Virus record (IMG/VR): IMGVR_UViG_3300037801_000074
Location: 1 to 36,610 of that record
From: a virus
Taxonomy: Duplodnaviria > Caudoviricetes
Length of the DNA stretch: 36,610 nucleotides
Reading direction: 5' to 3' (one strand)
Shown here piece by piece: positions 4,288-26,401 of this stretch (position 1 is the first letter of the stretch; each line of letters begins with the position of its first letter). Position numbers and translations under genes: made by a program. Below the pieces are notes generated by a model, which did no database searches, was not told the origin of the DNA, and saw only the letters and a program-made list of their open reading frames with translations.

Positions 4288-4496
4288 TGGATTATTGGAA
4301 AAATGCTTTAATTCGTGGACTTCGTACAGGCATACAGTCAGCACTAGCAGTAATACTTGCATCACAAGCAGGTTTTATGGACATGGACGTTCTTGCAAGC
4401 GCAGGAATTGCACTTGTCACAGCACTGTTGAGTGTCGCTCAAAATGCCATCGAAGATGCACCAATTAAAATCGGTAATAACATACCTAAAGGTTAA
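4287..4496 (+). CDS. Holin, r1t/actinophage type
   Basis: WKNALIRGLRTGIQ followed by two TM segments; start 4287 by TAATG coupling. Confidence 0.75.
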   Translation: MDYWKNALIRGLRTGIQSALAVILASQAGFMDMDVLASAGIALVTALLSVAQNAIEDAPIKIGNNIPKG

Positions 4497-4660
4497 TGTC
4501 ACTTTACGCAAGACGTAGGGGTATTAAAGGGCGTAAGCCTAAAAAAAACTACGATGTGCGTATTTGTGAACAAGATAAGTGTGATGTTAAATTATCAATA
4601 TACAATAAAAAAAAATATTGTTATACTCATACTAAGCCTGTAAAGAGGTGGACAAAGTAA
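4496..4660 (+). CDS. 54-aa basic Zn-finger-like protein
   Basis: Manual translation ...RICEQDKCDVKLSIYNKKKYCYTH...; TAATG-coupled to the holin. Confidence 0.55.
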   Translation: MSLYARRRGIKGRKPKKNYDVRICEQDKCDVKLSIYNKKKYCYTHTKPVKRWTK

Positions 4661-4767
4661 GAAACAAGTCTTGCTTTGTATAGATAGAAAGATATGGCTT
4701 TTCATCATATTAGCATGAGTGGACACTTGTTAGGTAAGATGATTTGAGTAGTTTTCTATTCTTTCAT

Positions 4768-4802
4768 AAGAAAACCCCCTATTGCTAGGGGGTTTATCTT
4801 TT
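4768..4802. terminator. Intrinsic terminator, probably bidirectional
   Basis: AAACCCCCTA-ttgc-TAGGGGGTTT 10-bp stem (GCAA loop on - strand); T-rich tails in both directions; between convergent units. Confidence 0.85.
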
Positions 4803-4836
4803 GTACGATAATAAGGGGATATGTCACAAAGACATA
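4768..4836 (-). ncRNA. Candidate anti-SD small RNA (~69 nt)
   Basis: Extended -10 TGgTACAAT (4850-4842), 5' hairpin UAUGUC/GACAUA, seed AUCCCCUUAUUAUCGUA, then the terminator. Confidence 0.6.
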
Positions 4837-4875
4837 CGATTATTGTACCATAAGTAAAGCAGTTGCCTGTATTAC

Positions 4876-5604
4876 TTAATTCTTCAATTGTAGCACATTA
4901 GCGAGTTCTTTTTGGTCTGCTAGTGCTAGTTGTTCTATTCTAAATTTAGCTTGTTTAAGGTCAGTTATTACATAAGGCAACAATAATGATTGCCATGCTT
5001 TTTGTATAACTTCTAATAAATCATCATTAGACATTGACTTTTGCAAGCGTTGTAATTCAACAATAGCTAGGTTAGGGCTACTAATACTAGCGCTATCAGA
5101 TGTTTTGGTATCATTAGAAGATACACTAACAGGGTTGTGATTAGCATGGGTATTGTCTTTTACTTCACCTGCAAAAGTCGCAGTCTTTTTATTCAGTGCA
5201 TTACTTCCTGCAACAGCAAGTTCATAATCACTTGCTTCAACTGAAGGAAATATAAATCTTAAAGCACGACCTGCACTAGAAGTTTGGCAGTTCTCTATGT
5301 GAGATGTTTGATTAACACCTTTACCACCTAATACTTCTTCTGCGTAGCCTTCAGCGTCAGCTTTATATTCGACACCTGCTTCTGCACACTTAACGTAAGT
5401 GTCAATATCAAAATTTTTATATGCTTTACAAATGAATTGTATTCTCGTACCATCATCAATTGTTTTTTCAAAAAGTAATCTGCCATTTGGATATTCAGCA
5501 TTAAAACGTTTAACGTTTTCAAATACAGGTACGTACTCTTTACCTTTGATGTTAATAGTTTCAACTGTTACTTTATTCTTCTTCTTCGTTTCTGTTTGTG
5601 TCAT
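4876..5604 (-). CDS. Putative single-strand annealing protein (Rad52/Sak-like)
   Basis: NIKGKEYVPV...SHIENCQTSSAGRAL N-terminal motifs, low-complexity linker and helical C-terminus. Confidence 0.6.
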   Translation of the reverse strand: MTQTETKKKNKVTVETINIKGKEYVPVFENVKRFNAEYPNGRLLFEKTIDDGTRIQFICKAYKNFDIDTYVKCAEAGVEYKADAEGYAEEVLGGKGVNQTSHIENCQTSSAGRALRFIFPSVEASDYELAVAGSNALNKKTATFAGEVKDNTHANHNPVSVSSNDTKTSDSASISSPNLAIVELQRLQKSMSNDDLLEVIQKAWQSLLLPYVITDLKQAKFRIEQLALADQKELANVLQLKN

Positions 5605-5752
5605 TATCCACCTTATCCTTCTCTAATTGCAAAACTAAAGTTGATGCAATTGTAAGTAATAAAATTACTTGTACGTCAACTTTGTTAGCGTCTTGTCGTA
5701 ATATGCTATTAGCAATAGCATTTAAGTTTTTCTTAATATCGTTTAAGTTCAT
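5573..5752 (-). CDS. 59-aa hypothetical protein (leaderless)
   Basis: MNLNDIKKNLNAIANSILRQD...; TTGCAT-N16-TACTAT-N7-ATG upstream. Confidence 0.5.
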   Translation of the reverse strand: MNLNDIKKNLNAIANSILRQDANKVDVQVILLLTIASTLVLQLEKDKVDNDTNRNEEEE

Positions 5753-5827
5753 AAAATAAATAGTAGTACATGTAGCATTATATGCAACACTTGTTATAAT
5801 AAATTTTACGATAAGGAAGGAAAAAAT
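5753..5827. promoter_or_regulatory. Divergent promoter pair with palindromic operator
   Basis: Leftward TTGCAT-N16-TACTAT; rightward TGtTATAAT (5792-5800); TGTAGCA-ttata-TGCAACA at 5771-5789. Confidence 0.65.
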
Positions 5828-6061
5828 ATGGAATTACTTACGTGTCAAGATATTGCACGTATAGCAGGCGTAAAAGTACGAACTGTTTATATGTGGATAT
5901 TTAGAACTAAGCAGGGTCTTATGAATTTCCCATCACCTGATGTGGATATTCCAAGAAGACCATTATGGAAATTAGAAACAGTCATAACATGGCTAGGACA
6001 AAGGGGAACAAATGTTACAAGTAAGGGGTCAGCAAGTACCACAGACAAAGTTATGCAATAA
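5828..6061 (+). CDS. HTH DNA-binding protein (AlpA/excisionase-like)
   Basis: LLTCQDIARIAGVKVRTVYMW...FPSPD...PLWKLETVITW. Confidence 0.8.
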   Translation: MELLTCQDIARIAGVKVRTVYMWIFRTKQGLMNFPSPDVDIPRRPLWKLETVITWLGQRGTNVTSKGSASTTDKVMQ

Positions 6062-7072: not shown

Positions 7073-7416
7073 CATACAGTGAATACGAGTTAGACGATTT
7101 AGATGATGAGTTAGTTTATCCTTATGGCAACGCACCTGCACCAAAAGACAGAGCTGTAAGACGTAAACTACTTAGAGAAGCATTAGTTAAAATTGCAAAA
7201 AACAGATGCGAGTGGGCAGAGTGTAACGACATAGGTACTGACATGGCACACATAACTGCAAGTGGTATGGGTGGCGCTATTAGTAAAGACAGATTAGATA
7301 ACGTTGCTTTATTATGTCATCATCATCACATGTGTTTTGATTATCAAATGTCTGCAAAGCAAAGACAGTTTGCGTTATCAGAATTATTAAGGGGGTACGT
7401 GCTTGGAAATAGATAA
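7069..7416 (+). CDS. HNH-like endonuclease
   Basis: CEWAEC..DMAHI..LDNVALLCHHHHMCFD. Confidence 0.75.
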   Translation: MTYSEYELDDLDDELVYPYGNAPAPKDRAVRRKLLREALVKIAKNRCEWAECNDIGTDMAHITASGMGGAISKDRLDNVALLCHHHHMCFDYQMSAKQRQFALSELLRGYVLGNR

Positions 7417-8461
7417 CAGATTAGAAATAGTAAAACGTTTTGATTTAGAACAAAGCGACCATTACAAAGAGCCAATTGCTATCCCTGAATTTTATGAAGG
7501 TATAAATAGAATATTGTTAGTTGGTAGTAGTGGTAGTGGTAAAAGCACAATATTAAATACACTTGGTGGTGTCAGCAAATTCTCAGAATATACAACAAAA
7601 CCAATTTGTAATTACTTCCCTAGCGCTGACCTTGCACAAAAACATTTAAAAGACGCAGGTTTAAATAGTATGCCTACATGGATTAGACCATTAAATGAAG
7701 TTAGTGATGGTGAACGATTTAGAGCAGAGCTAGCTATTAACATGTTTAACAACAGAATTGTTATCATAGATGAATTTACAAGTGTGCTTGATAGAGAAAC
7801 AGCTAAGTCAATTTGTTACACAATTAATAAAGGCGTGTCTAACAATAAAAAATTAATATTAGCAACAGGTCACGAAGATGTAATTAAATGGCTAGATGGT
7901 TTTTACATTTACAATACAGACACAAATACATACATGCGTAATCAATACGAATACGAAGCACCAACTTTAGATATTGAACGTGTTAAATATGATACGTGGC
8001 ATTGGTTTGCTAAACATCATTACTTAATGGGCAACATTAATAAAAGTAGTCACTGTTATGTAACGTATGTAAATAATCGCATGGCAGGCTTTATTGCAGT
8101 TAATAATCAACTTGGTAGAGATACGCCAAACAGTAAACGAGAACATCGATTAGTTGTCTTACCACAATATCAAGGACGTGGTCTTGGTAGTTTGTTTTCA
8201 AATACAATTGCTTACTTATATCACATGCAAGGCTACAGATATTTTAGTAAAACTAGCAACGTGTTGTTAGGTGAGTACAGACAAAAACATGATTTATGGA
8301 AACCTACAACAACAAACTTACGTCAACGTATTCAGAATAAACCAAGTGGTTTTGACAATTGGAACGTAAATACAACAAGAATTAGTTATTCACACGAGTT
8401 TATTGGCAAAAACATTGACAAATTTGACGATATATTAGCTACTAATAACTTGCATACATAG
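7403..8461 (+). CDS. ABC-ATPase + GNAT (Mom-like) fusion, putative DNA modification enzyme
   Basis: GSSGSGKST, SDGERFRAELA, IIDEFTSVLDR; FAKHHYL, HRLVVLPQYQGRGLG; TTG start after AAGGGGG. Confidence 0.8.
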   Translation: MEIDNRLEIVKRFDLEQSDHYKEPIAIPEFYEGINRILLVGSSGSGKSTILNTLGGVSKFSEYTTKPICNYFPSADLAQKHLKDAGLNSMPTWIRPLNEVSDGERFRAELAINMFNNRIVIIDEFTSVLDRETAKSICYTINKGVSNNKKLILATGHEDVIKWLDGFYIYNTDTNTYMRNQYEYEAPTLDIERVKYDTWHWFAKHHYLMGNINKSSHCYVTYVNNRMAGFIAVNNQLGRDTPNSKREHRLVVLPQYQGRGLGSLFSNTIAYLYHMQGYRYFSKTSNVLLGEYRQKHDLWKPTTTNLRQRIQNKPSGFDNWNVNTTRISYSHEFIGKNIDKFDDILATNNLHT

Positions 8462-8485
8462 CACATACTGCTACACTAAGTATGT
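8450..8485 (+). promoter_or_regulatory. Sigma70-type leaderless promoter
   Basis: TTGCAT-N16-TACACT-N8-ATG with extended TG; contains ATAGCA-N5-TGCTAC. Confidence 0.7.
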
Positions 8486-9391
8486 ATGGTAAACAAAGAA
8501 AAAAAGTTATTTAAAGGTGAGTGGGCTAACGAAAACGTTAATCCTGAAGATTATATTTTTAACGATTTTTTAACTGCACAATCACATGAATATAACTATC
8601 AAGCTATTGCACAAGGTGGCAAAGCTGACAAAGCCTATGAGTGTGATTTATGTCATGCACATATTGCATGGGCTTATTATTTTGACAACAGAAATACAGG
8701 TAAAAAATTAATTGCAGGTATTGAGTGTGCAAATATTATGGATAGTGGTTTAAAAGCACAAGATTATCAAAGAGCTAAAAGAGCTAAAGCAGAACGTTTA
8801 AAGTTTACACACGAGCAAAACATAGATATGTTTCACAAAGAATATCCACACTTAGTGCAAGCTGTAGAATATTTTAAAGGGTCGCACTATGCTATTGTTG
8901 ATATTTTTTCAAAGATTAAGTGGGGTTTGTCAGGTAAACAACTTAACTATTTACAAAAATTACTTACAGATGCGTGGTTAACAGAAGTTAATAAGTATAA
9001 AACAGAGTTTAAACCACCTGCACCAAAGCTATCTGTTGGTGTTCAAACATTAAATGTAACTATTAGTAACTATTACTTCCAAGAAAAAGGTTATTACGCA
9101 ATAGAAAAAGCAGTGTTTGAAACAGAAGATGGTCAAACAATTTTTACAGGTAAGACCAAACAGCTTATACAAAAACTTTATGTTGACCATAGATGGTCAG
9201 ACGAAGAAGACTTTTGGACTTTAGATAAAAAAGAACGTAAGTCAGAGCTTACACACAACAAGTCTTATTACAAGAAAAACACAGAAGGTGTGCTTACTGT
9301 AGAGATACTATCAGAGTTTGCTGATGATAAGTACAGCGCAAAAATAAAAGATTTTATTGTCACACAAACGTATGACGATGTGCTACAATAA
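8486..9391 (+). CDS. Hypothetical protein with Zn-binding motif
   Basis: 301 aa; CDLCHAHI...GIECA. Confidence 0.7.
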   Translation: MVNKEKKLFKGEWANENVNPEDYIFNDFLTAQSHEYNYQAIAQGGKADKAYECDLCHAHIAWAYYFDNRNTGKKLIAGIECANIMDSGLKAQDYQRAKRAKAERLKFTHEQNIDMFHKEYPHLVQAVEYFKGSHYAIVDIFSKIKWGLSGKQLNYLQKLLTDAWLTEVNKYKTEFKPPAPKLSVGVQTLNVTISNYYFQEKGYYAIEKAVFETEDGQTIFTGKTKQLIQKLYVDHRWSDEEDFWTLDKKERKSELTHNKSYYKKNTEGVLTVEILSEFADDKYSAKIKDFIVTQTYDDVLQ

Positions 9392-9416
9392 TTACGTAAG
9401 ATAAGAAGGGATAAAA

Positions 9417-9755
9417 ATGGCTAAAAATCAAATAAAAATGTTTCAAGGCTTTGTAGTCGAGAGTGCTTACAGAGTTAATAAAACATCTGATTATTTTAAA
9501 ATTACAGAAAAACTACATCAAGAAGATAACTTGACTTTAGATATGGTTTTTATGTTTTACAAGCACATAATTAACGATGAAAAAACTGCACGTAAAGTTA
9601 TTACAGATGAAATAATCTTGGACAATATCACAGCGATGATAGAAAACAATTTTATTACATCTGATGGCAAGTTTACAGAGCATGCCAAAGAAGTATTAGA
9701 CAAAGAAGGCTTCTATGTCGATGACAAAGACGTAGTACAACCAAAGGGGGAATAA
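9417..9755 (+). CDS. Hypothetical protein
   Basis: 112 aa; SD AAGGGA; TGcTACAAT promoter at 9381-9389. Confidence 0.65.
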   Translation: MAKNQIKMFQGFVVESAYRVNKTSDYFKITEKLHQEDNLTLDMVFMFYKHIINDEKTARKVITDEIILDNITAMIENNFITSDGKFTEHAKEVLDKEGFYVDDKDVVQPKGE

Positions 9756-9934
9756 TGGCAATCAGTAAAGCTAATCTTATTGCAATAACTAATAAAGTAA
9801 TCCACGATGCACTACCAAATAATGTTGTGCTATCTAATTGGGAACTAGAACTTATTAGTGTTAAGGCAGTAGAAAAAATAACAGAAGAACTTGCTAAACA
9901 ATTAGTAAGTCAATTTACGAAAGATGGTAAATAA
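9755..9934 (+). CDS. 59-aa hypothetical protein
   Basis: Manual translation MAISKANLIAITNK...; TAATG-coupled at both ends. Confidence 0.6.
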   Translation: MAISKANLIAITNKVIHDALPNNVVLSNWELELISVKAVEKITEELAKQLVSQFTKDGK

Positions 9935-10388: not shown

Positions 10389-10402
10389 ATAAGGTAGGGG
10401 AT

Positions 10403-10828
10403 ATGATTAAAAGATACACAAAGAAATTGGTTAAGTATTTTGTAGAGTTTTCGCAAGAGAACGAAGAACAAACAGAAACTAATGACCATTGGAACGCAAC
10501 GTTAACTGACCTGCGTATGACGCAAGGTCTTCTATCAATGACGCAAGAATTACTTTACAAACTTGGTAAGTACAATGAGTTATTTAAACTCAACACTTAT
10601 ACAAACATGTTAGATTTCATGGTTGCCATGACTAAAGTAGAAATTGCTTATCGTGACAGACAAGGGCATGCAAAGTCTAACAGTGCAGAGATGCAAGCAT
10701 TAATATATAAAAATACACAAAACATCAGAGAACAATTATGTTATGCAATTGATTTACCAAAAGATAACGAGTTCTATAAATTAATACACTTAGGTACTTT
10801 AAGGAAGTTGGTTAAAGAAAATGGCTAG
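10403..10828 (+). CDS. Hypothetical helical protein
   Basis: 141 aa; AAGGTAGGGGAT upstream. Confidence 0.65.
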   Translation: MIKRYTKKLVKYFVEFSQENEEQTETNDHWNATLTDLRMTQGLLSMTQELLYKLGKYNELFKLNTYTNMLDFMVAMTKVEIAYRDRQGHAKSNSAEMQALIYKNTQNIREQLCYAIDLPKDNEFYKLIHLGTLRKLVKENG

Positions 10829-10985
10829 TCATATTTGTGCAGATTGTAATACAAATGGTTATTACGAAACACATGAGTTTATAGATATGTGTAGTTATTG
10901 CGCAGATTTTCACGTCAACAAAAAATTATTAAACGATAAAGTCAACGCTACAGGTATGACAGAGAGAAGGGATATATGGATATAA
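10821..10985 (+). CDS. 54-aa Zn-ribbon protein
   Basis: Manual translation MASHICADC...MCSYC... Confidence 0.55.
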   Translation: MASHICADCNTNGYYETHEFIDMCSYCADFHVNKKLLNDKVNATGMTERRDIWI

Positions 10986-11221: not shown

Positions 11222-11249
11222 TTGCATAAGTGTAGCACTTTGTTACACT
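11222..11249 (+). promoter_or_regulatory. Sigma70-type promoter driving a non-coding unit
   Basis: TTGCAT-N16-TACACT with extended TG; TGTAGCA-ctt-TGTTACA palindrome. Confidence 0.7.
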
Positions 11250-15844: not shown

Positions 15845-18800
15845 ATGTCAGTTGAAGATACAGTACAGCAAGAATTAATCGCTGAAGAAAAAGCTGAAGT
15901 ATTTTTATCAATAGGTGAATATCTTAATCAAGCAATTATTGATTTAGTTTACGATGATGACATATATGACGCTGAACTAGCAAATGGTGACGCTAGTAAT
16001 TGGACATACAATAAATTACGTACAATAGAAGGTTTAATTGCATCTGCTGAAAAAGCAGGTAATGATTTACTTAAATTAGCAAGACCTACATTTCAAGATG
16101 TAGTTAATGTTGCTTACAATCACAGCGCAGAAGTAGCTACAGCAGAGTTAATAGCAGGTGGACAAACAGTTAATTTAGGCGCAGGGTGGGAAGGTATAAG
16201 CGAATATGCAGTTGATGCTTTAGTTGATGGTTTAGTTAACAGATGGGAAAAAAGAGTTGATAAGTTAGCAATAACATCATCAGTGCAAAACGAAGCAACA
16301 GATTATATAGAGCGTATAGCTAGTCAAGTTGTAGGTGGTCGTGCATTAAACGATGCACAAGCAGAAGCAGTCAGTGAATTAATAGATAAAGGCATACCTA
16401 TTTTTAAAGATAGTAAGGGTAGGAAATGGGCTATTGAAAATTATGCACCTATGTATGTTAGAACTGCATCGCAACAAGCAAGAGTACAAGGCGCACTAGA
16501 TACTTATGAAGCAAGTGGTAATCATTTAGTTTATATATCTGATAGCCCTGCTGAGTGTAAATATTGTAGAAAATATGAAGGGAAAATTTTTAGAACAACA
16601 GATAATATTGCTGATTTACCAAAGTCAAGACAAGAAGACCCACCATTACACTTAAACACTGCAAAGAACGCAAAACCTGTAGGTCTGTTTCACCCTAACT
16701 GTACGCATCAGGCGTTGTTGTACATAGAAGGACTTACAGATTTAGATAAGCAACCTGACCCTAAAGATGCAGAGCGTGAAAAAAATAGAAGCAATTTAAA
16801 ACGTGTACAAAAAAACAAACGTAGAGCTAGAGCAAAAATGAAGGAATATAAACGTAAAGGTCAAACAGCATATTACAAGAACGCTAAAGCAAATTGGAAT
16901 AAATGGTTGTCACAAGAAAAACAGCTTATGTCTTACTTTGAACGTCAAGGTCTAGGGTGGATAGGTGGCAACGACAGGTCATTACTATTAGCAGAAATGT
17001 TAGGCGTTGACCCTAAAGAGATAGCTAAGTTACAAAACAATCCACTAGCATTAGCAAAACTTGCACCAAAGACTGCGTTCCCTACAAAGCTAGTTACACC
17101 TAAAGCTAGAGATGCAATAGCAGATATAATAAGACCACCTGATATAAGCAACTTACGACTAGACGATGTAGAGCAACTATCACGTCAAGGACAGCTTGCA
17201 TTTAAAAGCAGTGGTTTAAAAAACATAGGTGATTTTGTTATAACAGACTTTACCTACTTAAACGAGAGCATACAAAAACAAATTAACTTCCAATACTATA
17301 AATATTTTGAGAGTGATTATGGCGTATTTAAGTATGCAGAAAACTTAAACCTTATGCACGCACCACCTAAACTACCAAGTTCGATAAACAGTAAAGTCAA
17401 GTTTGACGCATTTGTTAATGAAGGTGGCGTTGTATCTAACAAATATGCGTATTGGCAGTGGCATGAAGGTGACCTTGCACCAACTAAATATTGGCAAGAC
17501 GACAGAAAAACTAACTTATGGGATAAGATAGTTGAGAGAAAACTAGCAGAAGAAGTATCAGCAGGCGCAAAAACAAACAGAAAACAATATGTCAGTGGTG
17601 GTCTGCCGTCGTCAGGCAAGAGTAGAACTATATCAGGTAAAGACCCAAACAAAGCTGTTAAAACTATTGACCTAGCAGAATATGTGACATTAAACAGTGA
17701 CGACATGAAAACTATGTTGTTAATTGAAGAATATGGCACAACAGCAGATATAGCAATACATGATGAAATAAGTGATTTGTTTATTAACAGCGATACAAAT
17801 GGTGTAAACACAATAATTAAGTTAGATAGTGCAGGCAATATCATAGAAGGTCAAAGTGAAGTATGGGCTAAATTAAAGAAATCACACCCTGATGTTTTTG
17901 ATACATTATTTGCTGAGTATAAAAATGGACAAAAAATTGGTTATAAAGAAACAACAAGATTTAACGAGAAGTTTTTAACAGAGATAAAAGAGAGTATTGC
18001 AGAACGAGTAGTTGTAGTTCGTACAACAGATGTTGTATCAGAGATAATAGGTTTTGAAGGTGCAAACATTGTACATAGTGAGAGTTCAGCTTTACTTGCT
18101 TATGCACAAGATAGAGCAGGTGAACGTGGACTTAATATAGTACATGACGTAACGTTAGGGTCAGATAAACCACTTGATAAAATAGATGAGTTAATTAAAA
18201 CACATGGTTACATGGCAACAGAAGGTACATATATTGTGTATCAGGCAGAACAGGCTAAAAAAGGTGTTGTACAAAGATACGCAGAAGGCAACTTCCAAAA
18301 CCTGACATCTAAAGTAGCACGTGGACGTGGTGGTCGATACGTTTCAACAGGCGTTATTGACGAAGCTATGAAATTAATAGAAACTGATGCAGTAAACGAA
18401 ACATTAGAAATATTAGGACGACCTGCAATAAATGATAATGAGATTTATATGGCTAGGTTACTTAAATCAGGCAACGTTGACTTCAGAGATAATGGGTTTC
18501 AGATAATAGATAGAACATTAATTGACGAGAATACAGGTTATCCTGTGTCACGTAAAATCTTATTGCAACGTGGTAAAGATGGTATTCAAGGCATAAAAAA
18601 AGTAAACCCATCAACTAAAAATAAAGGACTTGATTTATTAGACATAGTACAAGAAGATACAAGGTCAAGACAAAGACCACGTGTAACAAAAGTCAAAGTT
18701 AAAGCAGAGCTTCCTAAAGCTAAATATGAAAAATCAGCGTTTAAAGGAATTATAGATAAATATAAAACAGACTTTAGGGTTTTAAAAAACAAAGATGGTT

Positions 18801-21800
18801 ATCTAACAAAGATACAAATGTACTTTGATAATTTAAGTGGGTCTAAATCTTACGTCACAACTGTAAGCACTAACTTTAATGTTGAAAACGCATTTGGTGA
18901 TAAATTTGACGTAAATGTAAGTACAGGACAAGTTAAGGGTGGTCATAGTAGAAGAAGATTTTATAGGGATTTGTCAGAAACAATTGACGATTTTAGATTA
19001 AATGAATTTGTAGATGATGCAAATTTACCTATTGGTTTGTCAAAGACACGTACAGCTAAAGATTATATTGTTAAAAGTATTGATGAAGCACAGTTAATTA
19101 TTAATAGTGAAACTGATAACTTGTTACGAAATCATCACTTGTATATTGTGCCTACTGTAGAAGATGCACATTTTTTATTTAATTCAGGAATAGCACCTAG
19201 TTTAATTTATGTTGGTGACAGTAAAGTGTTTGAAAAACACATTGACATAGTTACCAACTCTACACATAAAAGACTTAGAAATTCAGGTTATCCAAATTTT
19301 AGAAACATATTTCATGGTGATGATTTACCAATTAGATATAGCCCAAACTTCACAGATGGTTTTACTGTATCAAACCTTGAAAACATACCTGCAAAAATTG
19401 GTGAAGCAGACTTAGTTCATTACATAGCTAATACAGGAAAAACTGATGATTTTGATGCAATATCACATGAAAATTTATTTAAACCTGAATTGTCAGAAGA
19501 ATTTAAAAATACTGTTTATAGACAATTAGAAGTTATGCAGAAACAATTAGCTGATAATGGTATAGAACATGGCGCTATAAAAGTTATCTATAGTATTGAT
19601 GCTGTTGCATTTTACAAAAGCGCTTTAGATATACCTAAAGATGTAAGTTTTATAGATGAGTTGCTAGCAGGCAATATCGACCCATACGAAATGTATCTAG
19701 CAGGTGAACAATATAAAAATGGACAGTTAACTGTAACTAGATTTACAAATGAGAGTTCAGGTATGAATAGAGCTGTAGTCAAATTAAAACAACTATTAGG
19801 TATGAACTATCAAACTACGCATAACTTATATTCAGCTACACAACAAATTAAAGAAGCACAATTAGGAAGCGTATTAGTATCACAAACAAGTACAGTTGCA
19901 AAAGACGATGTAAAAGACATTTTTGAATTGACTAGACAGTCTTTAACAAATGAGAGATACATTGACGCAGAAACAGGACAATCATTTTTATACAGTGTTG
20001 TTGGTAAACACATAAACACAATTGATGCTGATGGTGATATGAATACTATATCAACTTTTAAAGTTGCACAAAAGGTTACAGAAGGTAAACAAGGAAGACA
20101 CGTAACAGACTTCTTAAACCTTAAAACAAAAAGAGTAGTAATGACTGTTGATGAATTTATAGAACAACAAAACCATATAAAAATTGATACTGATGGCGAT
20201 GTAGTTACTAAAAAAGCTAAGGTCAAGGGAAATACTAAAAAACAGTTTTTTAGCACAAGTGATAACCCAAGAGAGAGCAAAAGATTAATTGGTGCAGTGG
20301 GTAATACTAAAAATAACAATCAGTGGTTAAACAACGTTGACCAAGATACAATTAATGAACTTCAAATTGATAAACCAAAGTATGAAACACAACTTATTAA
20401 TAACACAACAGACGACTTTGTTTTAATAGAAAAACTAAAACAATTAAATGGTGATGATTTAATAGAAGTTGTGTTAGTTGATGAAAAAGACTTTGTTAAA
20501 AATTTTAGAGATGCTACAGACAATCCATACGCAGATGACATTACAGATTTTCTTGAAGGTCAAGTAAAAGATACGACACAACAACAACACAGTTCTATAT
20601 CAAATATTGGGTGGGCAGATGACCTAGACAAATACATTTATGGACAAGGTAATAGAGAAGGCAGAAGGGTAACTACATTACGTGGCGACAACCTAAGACT
20701 TAACACAAACATACCAAATGTAAGTGAAACAGATTTTGATGGATTACATAAAGTAGAAGTATCATCTGAAAAAGCATTAGATACATTAGCGTTACAACAA
20801 AAAGTAGAAGGTCACGATGATTTTTTACTACAAAACAGCGCTAAAACAACATCATTAGATAGTAATGAAACAATAAACAAAAAAGTATATAAGTTTGTAA
20901 AGCATGAAGGCGTTGAATTTGGTACGACACAAGCAACATCAACTAAATCAAATGTAAAAGGTAAAAAAGCGTTTTTAAATATAATTGAAGTTCCTAAAGA
21001 GCCAAACGTTAAAACAATTTATCACACTGTAGAAATAGATATAGATGATTTAAAACAAGATATAAGAGATGGCATGTTTAGCGTTACTAAAAACGATTTA
21101 CATTATTATCAAGATGGTGGTGATGTCACAGATGTTTTATTTGATAGAGATATTGAAGAATTTAAGTCGGTTAAGGCAATACGTAAGGTTATACCACAAG
21201 ATGTTTTGGACACAACAGAATTAGGCGAGTTATTGTTTTCTGTTAATGAAGAAGCCTATTATGGCGACACAGCAATACAGCGTCTTAAAAAAGGTTTAGA
21301 ACTAGAGAGTATGTTGCAATTTAGCGAAGACATGACTTTACGAGATATGGTAGAAATACGTTTAAATCGTAATACTGATTACACACAACATGTTATTAAA
21401 GCAAAACAAGATGGAAGTGGTGTCAATTTTATTGGTAAAAATTATAATCGTGGTGTTGTAAAGACCCAAGACCCATTAGTTCAACAATTAATAGAAGAAG
21501 CAACTTTAGATTATAGCCCTGCTGACATGGGAACAAGACAAGTCGATGCAAACAGAATATTTAAAGACAGGTTAATAAGCAAAGCTGTTGATAAAGGTTT
21601 AGTAAGTAATGAACTTAAACAAGCAGTTGATATAGTAGATACAGTTTTTGCAAAAGTAGGTGGTGTAAACAATCTAAATCTAACACAAGCAGAATTTGTA
21701 GATTTACTAGAACAGATAGAAGACATTAAAGATGAAACTTTAGCAGATAAAATAAAAATTATTGATGGTAAAGAAATATTAGAACTTCAATTATCTGACA

Positions 21801-23947
21801 GCGTAACAGAACAGATAAGTCAACTTATTGACCATAAAGAAATAGCACCTGAATTATTTGATTATGACGAACAAGTTTACAGAATTGTTATAGATACAGG
21901 CGAAGATATAAAACCACCTTTACACCACACAGGTATGATTGAAAATTATATTGAAACAGGTAATACAACAAGAGCAATAGGTTTATATAGAAGTGTTGAT
22001 AGTCAAATTAGCAGAGATATTTTAAGATACAACGTTGATATTGACACTGATACTTTATTAAATGAAATAGATAAAGTAACAAACTCTAGTGGTTTTTCGC
22101 CAAACAAAAATGAATTAGTAGCTAAGTTAACAACAACACAAGATATTGTAAACACATTAACTGATGGTATTAACACAGGTGAGTATTTAAACATTAATGA
22201 AACGTTTTTAAACAATGTTGCTGATTTTGGTTTAGTAGTAGATGCACCTGAAACAGCTTTATACAATACACATAAACTTGCTAAATTTGGTCACAGAAAT
22301 CTATTTAACAGTTCATCAATACCTATGGATATAGTCATTAAAGATTTAGAAACTTTTGCAGATTTAGGTTTAGTGTCGCAAGAAGAAATACTTGAATTAA
22401 AAAATTATATAGAATATACAACAAGTACCACAGGCGTTTCAATGAGTAACAAATATTTTAACGATGGTAGGCATGGTGTTAATTTAGCTTTAAAGCATGT
22501 AGCAGATGTTACAGACGATGTTATGATACAAGGATTTTTAATTGATGAACAATTAAAAGCCCAAGCACCTGACTTACCATTAAGCAAACACACACTTGTA
22601 CAACCTTTGACTTACGAGATACTTGAAGGCAGTCAACAAAAAAATACAAAATTAGTTGTTGCTTATGGGAACGAAGTAGGGTCAGATTTATTAGATTTAG
22701 ATAATAAAACATATACAGAAAAATTAATTGTATCTGAAAAAGGGGATTTACTTACAGGTATAAATTTAGAAGACCAATTTAATACAGGTAATGCTTATGA
22801 ACGTGGCGAGAGTGTAATAGTTAACGTGTCACCTACACGAGAAGCTGACACTAATTTAGTAATGTTATCGCAAGTAAATCAAGTTGTAGGCGTAGATGCT
22901 TCAGCACCAAGTAGCCAAATGTACAGTGCAGTTGTAAACGCCACGCACCCACAAGGGTCAGAAATACAGCTAGGGTCTTTAGTTTCTACATCTGCAAATG
23001 CAAGCACAGCTTATTCGTTTTCAAACAGTCAATTAAATAGAAATTTAGTCTTAAGTCACCCTGATGGAACGTTCACAATGCTAGACATGCCTGTAACATC
23101 TACAATTGCAGAATATAATCTAGCAAATACTGCATCAGTTAGGCATATATCAAGATTAGAAGGCGAGTATGAATATATAGTTCCATCTGATGCAAAACTT
23201 GAAGTTCTTGGTAGCACTGCCTATCCAATTAGAGTAAGTGCTAATGACAGAACAATTGATTTATCATTTTCGGAACAGCAATTTGAAAAAACAGTTGATG
23301 CAGTTTTAGATACATCTGATGAAATAATGGAAGAAAAAAAAGTACAGTACATATTGCTAGACAGATTAGACAATTACTCAAATTTAGATAGTGACAATAT
23401 ACCATTTCAAACTTTTAGAGAGATACATACAAGAAAACAAGTAGGTGGTGTTGTCTTAGATAAATCAACATTTAATCCTATAACAACTTATAGAAATATT
23501 AATGTTGTTGATTTAGAAGGTGTAGATAATTTATTTGATAATCAAGTTTTTGATGGTGATTTACCACAATCTTTTAACGAAATCAATATGGGAAGTAAAG
23601 ACAGCGCAATTCAAATAGTAAGAGCTTTGACAAGCGATAAAGTTATTGCAAACATAGAATATGCACAGTCATTAGCAGATGACCCTACAGTATTTGACTT
23701 TGACTTATTAGTAGCAAAACTCAAACAAGCACGTGGAATAGCTGAAAACGCTAAAGGCGCACAAGCGCTAACAATACAAAACTATTTTGCTACACAACTG
23801 ACAGAGTTTTTTTCATATTACAACGATACAGCAGGTGTTGAGTGGTACGAAGCAGACATGCCACAATTTTATAACTTCTTCTTTGACAATAGCTCTAGTA
23901 CATTAGACGATACAATATTAGAATTAATAAAAGAGATAGATGAATAA
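15845..23947 (+). CDS. Giant minor capsid (Phage_min_cap2/MuF-like) protein with zeta-toxin-like and ADP-ribosyltransferase-like domains
   Basis: DSKGRKW..Y..M.VRT..CKYC..EGK..GLFHPNCTH (aa ~190-290); GGLPSSGKS aa 585, DDMK, HSESS, GGRYV; STS aa 2381 and EYE aa 2441. Confidence 0.8.
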   Translation: MSVEDTVQQELIAEEKAEVFLSIGEYLNQAIIDLVYDDDIYDAELANGDASNWTYNKLRTIEGLIASAEKAGNDLLKLARPTFQDVVNVAYNHSAEVATAELIAGGQTVNLGAGWEGISEYAVDALVDGLVNRWEKRVDKLAITSSVQNEATDYIERIASQVVGGRALNDAQAEAVSELIDKGIPIFKDSKGRKWAIENYAPMYVRTASQQARVQGALDTYEASGNHLVYISDSPAECKYCRKYEGKIFRTTDNIADLPKSRQEDPPLHLNTAKNAKPVGLFHPNCTHQALLYIEGLTDLDKQPDPKDAEREKNRSNLKRVQKNKRRARAKMKEYKRKGQTAYYKNAKANWNKWLSQEKQLMSYFERQGLGWIGGNDRSLLLAEMLGVDPKEIAKLQNNPLALAKLAPKTAFPTKLVTPKARDAIADIIRPPDISNLRLDDVEQLSRQGQLAFKSSGLKNIGDFVITDFTYLNESIQKQINFQYYKYFESDYGVFKYAENLNLMHAPPKLPSSINSKVKFDAFVNEGGVVSNKYAYWQWHEGDLAPTKYWQDDRKTNLWDKIVERKLAEEVSAGAKTNRKQYVSGGLPSSGKSRTISGKDPNKAVKTIDLAEYVTLNSDDMKTMLLIEEYGTTADIAIHDEISDLFINSDTNGVNTIIKLDSAGNIIEGQSEVWAKLKKSHPDVFDTLFAEYKNGQKIGYKETTRFNEKFLTEIKESIAERVVVVRTTDVVSEIIGFEGANIVHSESSALLAYAQDRAGERGLNIVHDVTLGSDKPLDKIDELIKTHGYMATEGTYIVYQAEQAKKGVVQRYAEGNFQNLTSKVARGRGGRYVSTGVIDEAMKLIETDAVNETLEILGRPAINDNEIYMARLLKSGNVDFRDNGFQIIDRTLIDENTGYPVSRKILLQRGKDGIQGIKKVNPSTKNKGLDLLDIVQEDTRSRQRPRVTKVKVKAELPKAKYEKSAFKGIIDKYKTDFRVLKNKDGYLTKIQMYFDNLSGSKSYVTTVSTNFNVENAFGDKFDVNVSTGQVKGGHSRRRFYRDLSETIDDFRLNEFVDDANLPIGLSKTRTAKDYIVKSIDEAQLIINSETDNLLRNHHLYIVPTVEDAHFLFNSGIAPSLIYVGDSKVFEKHIDIVTNSTHKRLRNSGYPNFRNIFHGDDLPIRYSPNFTDGFTVSNLENIPAKIGEADLVHYIANTGKTDDFDAISHENLFKPELSEEFKNTVYRQLEVMQKQLADNGIEHGAIKVIYSIDAVAFYKSALDIPKDVSFIDELLAGNIDPYEMYLAGEQYKNGQLTVTRFTNESSGMNRAVVKLKQLLGMNYQTTHNLYSATQQIKEAQLGSVLVSQTSTVAKDDVKDIFELTRQSLTNERYIDAETGQSFLYSVVGKHINTIDADGDMNTISTFKVAQKVTEGKQGRHVTDFLNLKTKRVVMTVDEFIEQQNHIKIDTDGDVVTKKAKVKGNTKKQFFSTSDNPRESKRLIGAVGNTKNNNQWLNNVDQDTINELQIDKPKYETQLINNTTDDFVLIEKLKQLNGDDLIEVVLVDEKDFVKNFRDATDNPYADDITDFLEGQVKDTTQQQHSSISNIGWADDLDKYIYGQGNREGRRVTTLRGDNLRLNTNIPNVSETDFDGLHKVEVSSEKALDTLALQQKVEGHDDFLLQNSAKTTSLDSNETINKKVYKFVKHEGVEFGTTQATSTKSNVKGKKAFLNIIEVPKEPNVKTIYHTVEIDIDDLKQDIRDGMFSVTKNDLHYYQDGGDVTDVLFDRDIEEFKSVKAIRKVIPQDVLDTTELGELLFSVNEEAYYGDTAIQRLKKGLELESMLQFSEDMTLRDMVEIRLNRNTDYTQHVIKAKQDGSGVNFIGKNYNRGVVKTQDPLVQQLIEEATLDYSPADMGTRQVDANRIFKDRLISKAVDKGLVSNELKQAVDIVDTVFAKVGGVNNLNLTQAEFVDLLEQIEDIKDETLADKIKIIDGKEILELQLSDSVTEQISQLIDHKEIAPELFDYDEQVYRIVIDTGEDIKPPLHHTGMIENYIETGNTTRAIGLYRSVDSQISRDILRYNVDIDTDTLLNEIDKVTNSSGFSPNKNELVAKLTTTQDIVNTLTDGINTGEYLNINETFLNNVADFGLVVDAPETALYNTHKLAKFGHRNLFNSSSIPMDIVIKDLETFADLGLVSQEEILELKNYIEYTTSTTGVSMSNKYFNDGRHGVNLALKHVADVTDDVMIQGFLIDEQLKAQAPDLPLSKHTLVQPLTYEILEGSQQKNTKLVVAYGNEVGSDLLDLDNKTYTEKLIVSEKGDLLTGINLEDQFNTGNAYERGESVIVNVSPTREADTNLVMLSQVNQVVGVDASAPSSQMYSAVVNATHPQGSEIQLGSLVSTSANASTAYSFSNSQLNRNLVLSHPDGTFTMLDMPVTSTIAEYNLANTASVRHISRLEGEYEYIVPSDAKLEVLGSTAYPIRVSANDRTIDLSFSEQQFEKTVDAVLDTSDEIMEEKKVQYILLDRLDNYSNLDSDNIPFQTFREIHTRKQVGGVVLDKSTFNPITTYRNINVVDLEGVDNLFDNQVFDGDLPQSFNEINMGSKDSAIQIVRALTSDKVIANIEYAQSLADDPTVFDFDLLVAKLKQARGIAENAKGAQALTIQNYFATQLTEFFSYYNDTAGVEWYEADMPQFYNFFFDNSSSTLDDTILELIKEIDE

Positions 23948-24724: not shown

Positions 24725-24761
24725 TTGCAAATTATAGCAAAGTGTGCTACACTACTTACGT
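24725..24761 (+). promoter_or_regulatory. Early-type promoter inside the head module
   Basis: TTGCAA-N17-TACACT with ATAGCA-N5-TGCTAC. Confidence 0.7.
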
Positions 24762-24786
24762 ATGGTTAATGAAGGGATTATAAAAA

Positions 24787-24966: not shown

Positions 24967-24977
24967 GAAGGGGAACT

Positions 24978-25244: not shown

Positions 25245-25444
25245 TGGCAAAAATAGATGAGTTACATAAACAAGCAGAAGATGGCACACTACATTGTGAC
25301 GAGTGCGACTTTGACGTGTGTGATACTTTTGTAAAATGTAGTACAGAAGATTTGGATTGTGAGTTGTGCGCAGTGTTTCAACCACAAGACTTTTATGAAT
25401 ATGATATGTGTTTCTCATGCGCATCAGAACAAGACAAACTATAA
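25244..25444 (+). CDS. Acidic Cys-rich protein
   Basis: CDEC..C..C..CELC..CFSC; TAATG coupling. Confidence 0.6.
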   Translation: MAKIDELHKQAEDGTLHCDECDFDVCDTFVKCSTEDLDCELCAVFQPQDFYEYDMCFSCASEQDKL

Positions 25445-25455
25445 AGGGGGAATAA

Positions 25456-26203: not shown

Positions 26204-26239
26204 TTGCATTAGTATTACAAACTGCTACACTAATACTGT
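26204..26239 (+). promoter_or_regulatory. Early-type promoter
   Basis: TTGCAT-N16-TACACT-N8-ATG. Confidence 0.7.
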
Positions 26240-26401
26240 ATGACAAAAGGGGATAAAAAAATGGTTGAATTAAAAGTTTCAGATTTCTTGTCTGAAGTCA
26301 AAGTATATACATTTAATGACCTTACTGAAGAAGACCTTGACAACGTCAAGTCACTTCAAGAACAAGGTGTTGATGTAGAAGTTAATAAGGTAGGTAAATA
26401 A
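26240..26401 (+). CDS. Small acidic protein (start 26240 or 26261)
   Basis: Manual translation (MTKGDKK)MVELKVSDFLSEV...; AAGGGGATA before the second ATG. Confidence 0.55.
   Translation: MTKGDKKMVELKVSDFLSEVKVYTFNDLTEEDLDNVKSLQEQGVDVEVNKVGK

Follow-up and report, generated by a model that had tools for sequence, protein, structure and literature searches.

A candidate antisense RNA complementary to a ribosome-binding-site tag of non-structural genes in a tailed phage and its relatives

The window analyzed herein, the whole 36,610-nucleotide stretch of a linear virus record (36.6 kb, 96% complete, 35% G+C), encodes head, tail, lysis and replication genes. Its terminase and capsid proteins were nearest to those of Streptomyces, Rhodococcus and Amycolatopsis phages or prophages (47-61% identity) and to one Oscillospiraceae MAG (63%), and many of its genes start without a leader behind an extended -10 box. 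The actinobacterial kinship of terminase and capsid together with these leaderless genes suggested that the host is likely a low-G+C actinobacterium; the host genome itself was not found. RNA contigs resembling the window (at least 99% identity) came from runs labelled as seawater or as unspecified metagenomes. The window also encodes a 2,700-residue minor capsid fusion (15845-23947) with a Zeta-toxin-like domain at residues 741-846, the counterpart of which comprises only about 1,290 residues in three relatives, and an ABC-type ATPase fused to a GNAT acetyltransferase (7403-8461), a gene that was found in the window clade and not in the other relatives.

The element under study sits between two converging transcription units, separated by a two-way intrinsic terminator with a GCAA loop (4772-4795), the stem of which was found on each strand by a terminator scan. 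On the plus strand, its neighbours are the phosphoesterase gene, the holin gene and a 54-codon gene (4496-4660) of a lysis-side operon, the last encoding a basic protein with a Cys/His motif that is about 80% identical across relatives and for which a family match was sought and none found. On the minus strand, it is preceded by a gene at 4876-5604 assigned to PHROG 11717 (function unknown), whose product gave Sak of phage 80a as its best fold match, although with an E value of 1.7 on a low-confidence model; on this weak evidence, it is probably a Sak/Rad52-like single-strand annealing protein, and is referred to below as SSAP-like.

An earlier note, made from the letters of this DNA alone, had proposed that a small RNA is encoded here on the minus strand, and all the elements it named were found where it had placed them. 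As confirmed by a sequence check, these include a 5' hairpin (4835-4821) and a 17-nt seed AUCCCCUUAUUAUCGUA (4820-4804) ahead of the terminator. The seed consists of the core AUCCCCUU (4813-4820), which is the complement of AAGGGGAU and the slot of which holds CCAUCCUU in the relatives, and of a 3' extension (4804-4812) pairing with upstream parts of several leaders. The ATG at 4835 encodes MSL followed by a stop codon; this peptide, having just three codons and occurring in the window only, was rejected as the product.

Two promoters were predicted for the element. P1, with the extended -10 box TGCTACAAT (4887-4895, minus strand), lies within the last codons of the SSAP-like gene and would give a long form of about 112 nt (4880-4768), which doubles as the 3' UTR of the SSAP-like mRNA and is predicted to fold into a 5' hairpin, a long stem with the seed in a bulge, and the terminator. 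P2, TGGTACAAT (4842-4850, minus strand), is the promoter named in the earlier note; it also provides the 5' arm of the long stem that displays the core as a bulge, and would give a short form of about 68 nt (4768-4835) with the entire 17-nt seed single-stranded. In the long form, the core had a predicted unpaired probability of 0.81 and the 3' extension was occluded. The fold of the long form had a z-score of -6.0, and of -3.3 when the terminator was removed, with 0 of 200 shuffles as good. Since several leaders in the window also pair with the 3' extension, which is free only in the short form, both starts may be used there.

The length of about 70 nt and the promoter at 4850-4842 proposed in the earlier note did not extend beyond the window, whereas the P1 box recurred in all sequence types described below and predicted a longer RNA. 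Among 24 units (two with the same sequence in this part were counted as one), which are related and not independent trials, the box took the form TGnTAnnnT in 14 and G-n-TA-nnn-T in the other 10, these forms having a background of 16/269 and 54/269, respectively, at ordinary gene ends. The box fell in differing codon frames across the relatives, and the predicted RNA measured 94-117 nt in all but one of the 24 distinct units, that one having been mis-cut by the script. Small RNAs that arise from a 3' UTR by way of an internal promoter have this promoter near the end of the upstream gene, within its coding part, and share its terminator; both traits were found here at the motif level. A terminator hairpin was likewise present at the same place in all 26 distinct intergenic regions. 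No Rfam family matched the element at threshold. As for the strand, G-U pairs in the seed hairpins of two relatives (L005 and G007) were compatible with the minus strand only, and one G-U pair in the long stem of the window favoured the plus strand. No conserved plus-strand reading frame was found 3' of the site in the 26 regions (22 by script, 4 by eye), and a plus-strand mini-gene of 10 codons (AAGGGGAT-ATG) was rejected because it lies past the terminator, has no fitting promoter and is not conserved. In four metatranscriptome runs, six contigs of at least 99% identity covered the holin region, the SSAP-like gene and ORF 5752, but 4572-4973 was in none of them and no transcript of the element was seen, in assembled contigs that hide strand and ends and from which short RNAs are easily lost.

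The leaders with which the seed could pair were then compared between two classes of genes, which were called by our own script and classified by position and homology, not by expression. Assigned to the non-structural class were 24 genes, namely those of the SSAP-like operon, those from the HTH gene up to but excluding the ParB-like gene, and those located between head gene and scaffold; the comparison class had 33 structural/late genes. Six starts in the window were set by hand, two of which (10976 and 26261) were shifted to the tagged start, leaving 13 of the 15 hits reported below unaffected; the leader set excludes ORFs 11435 and 27063, a single start of G001 was entered by hand, and low-scoring gene calls below 150 nt were removed.

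All of the target strings listed in the earlier note (at 10396, 26247, 6001, 24968, 9406, 10967, 24772 and 5807, and in the leader of the gene at 5604) were present. On the minus strand, the leader of the SSAP-like gene (5605-5616) offered 11 bp with one bulge and carries [AG]AGGATGG in 24/24 relatives. The tagged leaders on the plus strand include those of the winged-helix gene 6012 (6001-6007), where three complete relatives have AAGGATGG, of gene 9417 (9406-9412), the first gene behind an operator-bearing promoter, and, by seed pairing, of genes 10976 (10967-10973), 24787 (24772-24778) and 24978 (24968-24974). The perfect 10-bp match claimed at 10396-10405, spanning the leader and start of gene 10403, was indeed found, but three of the bases it needs are paired in the 5' hairpin, the opening of which costs 3-7 kcal/mol. 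Similarly, the match at 26247-26255 exists and is the strongest predicted target, but the start it serves is 26261, not 26240. Beyond those listed, tagged leaders were found at 7403 (the ATPase/GNAT gene; 7389-7395), 9755 (9744-9750), 25456 (25444-25450), 25244 and 27553. The HTH leader, also named as a target, does contain TACGATAA (5807-5814, plus strand); this string pairs with the seed extension only, and the HTH leader is a doubtful target because no tag occurs there in the relatives inspected. An extra AAGGGGAT lies inside the 2,700-codon head gene (22740), and the leader of gene 9934 (about 9920-9933) reads AAAGATGGTAA, one base off the tag of the relatives and possibly a decayed copy.

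At -9 kcal/mol or better, the 17-nt seed bound 15/24 non-structural leaders and 0/33 structural/late leaders in the window, in agreement with the early-over-late enrichment that the earlier note had anticipated. None of 1,376 random antisense 17-mers and none of 300 shuffles reached 15, the best reaching 14. In a scan that used no early/late labels, this site ranked first among 1,224 intergenic 16-mers of the window, and the seed site ranked second, second and third in relatives. When the costs of opening were counted, the figures became 12/24 versus 0/33 for the long form and 15/24 versus 6/33 for the short form. A generic tail of 16S rRNA also favoured early leaders (p 1e-4), because many late genes are coupled or leaderless. 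With strong-SD leaders alone, the contrast in the window was 13/16 versus 0/3 (p 0.02), and that in three complete relatives was not significant singly (p 0.11, 0.07 and 0.17). Two RBS classes thus exist as had been claimed, and the seed fits the non-structural one. Both the seed of the window and that of the relatives paired poorly with AGGAG-type leaders, such as those of the phage's own late genes, a type that host genes probably use as well.

Scans with the phosphoesterase and the 54-codon protein led to syntenic relatives. The distinct intergenic regions numbered 26, of which two belonged to the window type and the remaining 24 fell into six sequence types. Left out were six distant matches in another context and four cut-off loci; L023-L028 were left out as distant phosphoesterase relatives with another gene order, and the GC-rich G019, G021 and G023 served for homology comparison only. 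Between the SSAP stop codon and the terminator, CATCCTT (CAUCCUU in RNA) was present in all 24 distinct relatives; it was the sole 7-mer common to them, and outside the seed no 7-mer exceeded 12/24. Its complement marks the same class of genes: AGGATGG preceded 9/27, 11/30 and 8/25 non-structural starts in three complete relatives versus 0/44, 0/38 and 0/40 late starts, that is, 0 of 122 late starts overall. In the window and its 98% identical twin (G003), AAGGATGG did not occur at all.

The window clade therefore departs from the rest in tag and seed alike, as the earlier note had predicted for co-varying relatives, although only one such switch was sampled, separating the window and its twin from all others with the root left open. 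In cross tests, the leaders of the window clade were paired better by their own seed than by that of the other clade in 15/17, 15/16 and 14/18 cases, and the leaders of relatives by theirs in 10/10, 11/14 and 11/11; the orthologous SSAP leader matched the local seed in 26/26 regions. Among the AAGGATGG phages, seeds were not discriminating (own seed better in 6/10, 7/12, 5/16, 5/14, 10/13 and 10/11). Across six relatives of three types, no common fold was found, the folds differing by type, and the core was largely unpaired in the fold of each type (probability 0.50-1.00).

A second C-rich loop was observed in the 5' hairpin of the predicted RNA in L127/L014 (G025), L123, L137 and L141, the presence of which did not track the counts of AAGGG-type leaders among the relatives. 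In L127, this loop is identical to the AUCCCCUU of the window, so that the window seed may derive from a retained second seed after loss of the first rather than from mutation of a single one. Further clades of the window type were looked for, and the scan for P0004, which like P0003 stands at 57% to the SSAP-like protein of the window, found none; in the MCP and terminase scans, from which 33 terminase loci were set aside, no record was shown to be of the window type beyond the twin. An exact search of viral contigs with the 17-mer gave three matches, namely the twin genome and two in unrelated contexts (L003 and L004), the latter taken as chance.

The lysis-side operon of the relatives showed features of its own. 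The gene of the 54-residue protein directly precedes a structured 3' region, which ends, on the plus strand just 5' of the terminator (L012:8055-8085, L010:7195-7215), in another conserved hairpin, whose loop reads G[AG]GG and whose stem of 6-8 bp covaries (10 variants, three G-U pairs favouring the plus strand); the window clade has no such hairpin. In L131, L135, L160 and L163, a sense copy of the tag was also found within this 3' region and might act as a sponge for the small RNA.

In summary of what is observed, the tag occurs only on non-structural leaders, one complement without a reading frame occupies the same slot in every relative examined, and the two differ jointly between the clades. 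The element is real and conserved, and likely of the trans-acting anti-SD RNA type. Since the seed complements a tag that only non-structural genes carry, and a change in the one goes with a change in the other, the locus likely makes a small RNA that would turn those genes down; in this form, we consider it rather probable, from comparison of the sequences, that an RNA of about 110 nt pairs with a private SD variant of the non-structural genes and blocks their translation as a group. The RNA would be made from the host-type extended -10 promoter in the last codons of the SSAP-like gene and, in addition, as the 3' portion of the SSAP-like mRNA; in the window, a second promoter perhaps contributes. 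The exposed C-rich core of the RNA would meet the tag and keep the 30S subunit off, and late genes would be spared, their starts being of the AGGAG type, coupled or leaderless.

Regarding the timing, the earlier note had envisaged an early-to-late switch. Nothing showed late expression, the predicted promoter being of an ordinary host type. Instead, an operator-like 7-3-7 inverted repeat lies over the extended -10 of early cassette promoters and is conserved in relatives (5772-5788, 8458-8474, 9370-9386, 11232-11248, 24734-24750 and 26212-26228 in the window). It had 0-3 mismatches at most early cassette promoters versus 5-8 at the promoter of the RNA in four genomes, and 8 matches in the window versus 1.7 expected, for a consensus drawn by eye from the same genomes. 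The HTH gene, which is without the tag in the relatives inspected, is a candidate for the binder of this repeat. With the operator on the early promoters and none on that of the RNA, the RNA would likely keep accumulating after early transcription is shut, and would then silence leftover early messages. Such a delayed brake, as opposed to a late-induced switch, is a plausible timing to which we give slightly less than even weight.

Other explanations of the locus have to be weighed against this proposed group silencing. One of them is that only the tail of the SSAP-like mRNA matters, folding in cis onto its own RBS, with the other tagged leaders as bystanders. The match between seed and SSAP leader in 26/26 units, the position of the element at the 3' end of that mRNA and the precedent of the icaR mRNA (available text of PMC3868564) agree with this, but it leaves unexplained the 8-11 other tagged leaders per genome and their absence from late genes, the genome-wide switch of the tag, and the retention of the -10 box at the gene end in differing codon frames; moreover, the SSAP leader of the window ranked only 10th to 13th once opening costs were included. 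We thus regard a purely cis-acting 3' UTR as unlikely. Slightly less unlikely is a protein that reads the tag, either a RegB-like nuclease or a translational repressor, with the intergenic copy serving as a plus-strand decoy or binding site. T4 RegB inactivates early mRNAs by cutting GGAG/U in SD sites (available text of PMC3014915), most tag variants contain GGAU or GGA, and the plus-strand copy of L012 would occupy a hairpin loop. Such a copy would lie past the terminator with no promoter noted, whereas the minus-strand copy has the promoter on one side and the terminator on the other. The minus strand is also favoured by wobble pairs in two relatives, and neither an RNase nor an RNA-binding family turned up among 36 (PHROGs) and 12 (Pfam) window proteins, with most small genes being unassigned.

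The same RNA and targets could also be put to another use, restraining lytic genes in a carrier or lysogenic state as c4 does, or shutting off host mRNAs. A host-type promoter without operator, an adjoining divergent promoter pair with a conserved inverted repeat (5772-5788), and the resemblance of the seeds to the 16S tail would suit such a role, but neither an integrase nor a clear repressor was found among the window proteins scanned (36 by PHROGs, 12 by Pfam), and the poor pairing of both seeds with AGGAG-type leaders, probably those of the host, speaks against host messages; this use appears quite improbable. Least probable, in our judgement, is a relic of promoter-RBS cassettes shuffled by duplication or gene conversion, with the intergenic copy left as a dead cassette that does nothing as an RNA. 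Although tagged leaders often have a common promoter/operator context, and the plus-strand orientation of the copy is that of most tagged leaders, a dead copy should decay, yet this one is the sole 7-mer that stays unchanged through six types of sequences with no other kinship, and it keeps its place and unit length with no plus-strand operator, promoter or frame.

The earlier note had known of no description of such a system in phages, and this held in one part only. Two RBS classes are already in print as the SAS of Cluster K mycobacteriophages, repeats at the RBS position of non-structural genes (Pope et al. 2011, accessible text of PMC3203893), which were proposed at that time as possible sites for RNA or protein, and for which a single opposite copy was noted in four K1 genomes with its partner left open. 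SAS and ESAS also occur in Cluster EF Microbacterium phages (PMC7302621), no role is assigned to SAS in the accessible text of PMC7302621, PMC4351075, PMC11373665 and PMC12699233, and the role is still given as open in the 2024 and 2025 papers among these (PMC11373665, PMC12699233). In the literature searched, mostly open-access, no phage RNA directed against a class-wide RBS tag was found.

The tag of the window resembles SAS in its confinement to non-structural genes, where it takes the RBS position only a few bases from the start codon, and in having one copy without a gene start, which here is antisense within an RNA of its own transcription unit. As with ESAS, an inverted repeat covers the promoter at a subset of sites, here a different 7-3-7 repeat over the extended -10. 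The two have no sequence kinship, however: the tag measures 7-8 nt versus 13 for SAS, and the 13-bp SAS consensus of Pope et al. was not matched by leaders of the window or the relatives. Furthermore, unlike in Cluster K, the complement is universal in our sample and lies in a short unit bounded by promoter and terminator.

In Anaya and Adephagia, the reversed SAS was found to form the 10-nt apical loop of a long hairpin (L107:39848-39908 in Anaya; L108:38660-38720 in Adephagia, about 58659-58719 of JF704105), a candidate anti-SAS RNA. The hairpin stands behind a conserved SigA-like promoter motif in the gap between genes 92 and 93, where late transcription of Adephagia is reported to begin (accessible text of PMC11373665), and 6 of its 19 pairs were changed on both sides over nine phages. 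Among 12 aligned K phages, the loop was exact in 6, altered in 4 and absent in 2 (Pixie and Keshu); the reversed copy was absent in K2/K3, and no reversed SAS copy was found in the TM4 stretch examined. As SAS was unchanged in three altered-loop phages (Ekdilam, Tierra and Shandong1), no co-variation was found in Cluster K, and the persistence of SAS where the antisense loop is altered or absent counts against generality. In L120-L122 of Cluster K, a second repeated leader word, ACAACTGAATA, was observed before tail and some right-arm genes. That phages address a gene class by a private SD dialect and silence it by one antisense RNA, a design that would explain at least the SAS of K1, is offered as a tentative possibility. 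If it holds, a K1 late leader displaying the anti-SAS loop would account for the SAS motifs, and the open question of SAS would become directly testable, as cultured K1 phages permit mutation of the loop in a laboratory host.

Among known systems, the c4 RNA is released from a longer RNA by RNase P, has a fixed set of three stem-loops, serves immunity and has a single operon as its target. The exposed loops of c4 of P1 and P7 pair in trans with phage mRNA, one of them over an RBS, and their specificity changes with the target between the two phages (available text of PMC5320573). The predicted exposed segment complementary to a phage RBS is shared with c4 (PMC5320573, PMC12197685), but the RNA of the window differs in having neither an Rfam match nor a conserved fold, and in having a dozen or more dispersed predicted targets. 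The Rfam C4 model gave no match at the gathering score in the window or the loci of seven relatives and was absent among the matches with E<=10, and the three conserved stem-loops of c4 with their a' and b' loops were not found, the folds differing by type without a consensus. The core also recalls the UCCCC-motif RNAs of Staphylococcus aureus (RNAIII, RsaE and the icaR 3' UTR), with a C-rich anti-SD core of nearly the same letters that, in the icaR type, is located in a 3' UTR (available text of PMC3868564); those are host RNAs with host targets, unlike the element here, and have no private tag class tracking the seed. With T4 RegB, the predicted outcome is the same, early messages being turned off through a sequence in the SD site, but RegB is a protein nuclease needing ribosomal protein S1, as opposed to the RNA reader proposed here (available text of PMC3014915). 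For the phage antisense RNAs met in the literature, the targets are host messages or one operon, and class-wide shut-off of early translation is known from the RegB protein. One RNA that reads an RBS tag across a gene class would give phages a compact developmental control; matched pairs of tag and seed could act as orthogonal translation switches. If the proposed silencing is true, this marine phage family, in which the tag and its reader change together, would hold an RNA counterpart of T4 RegB.
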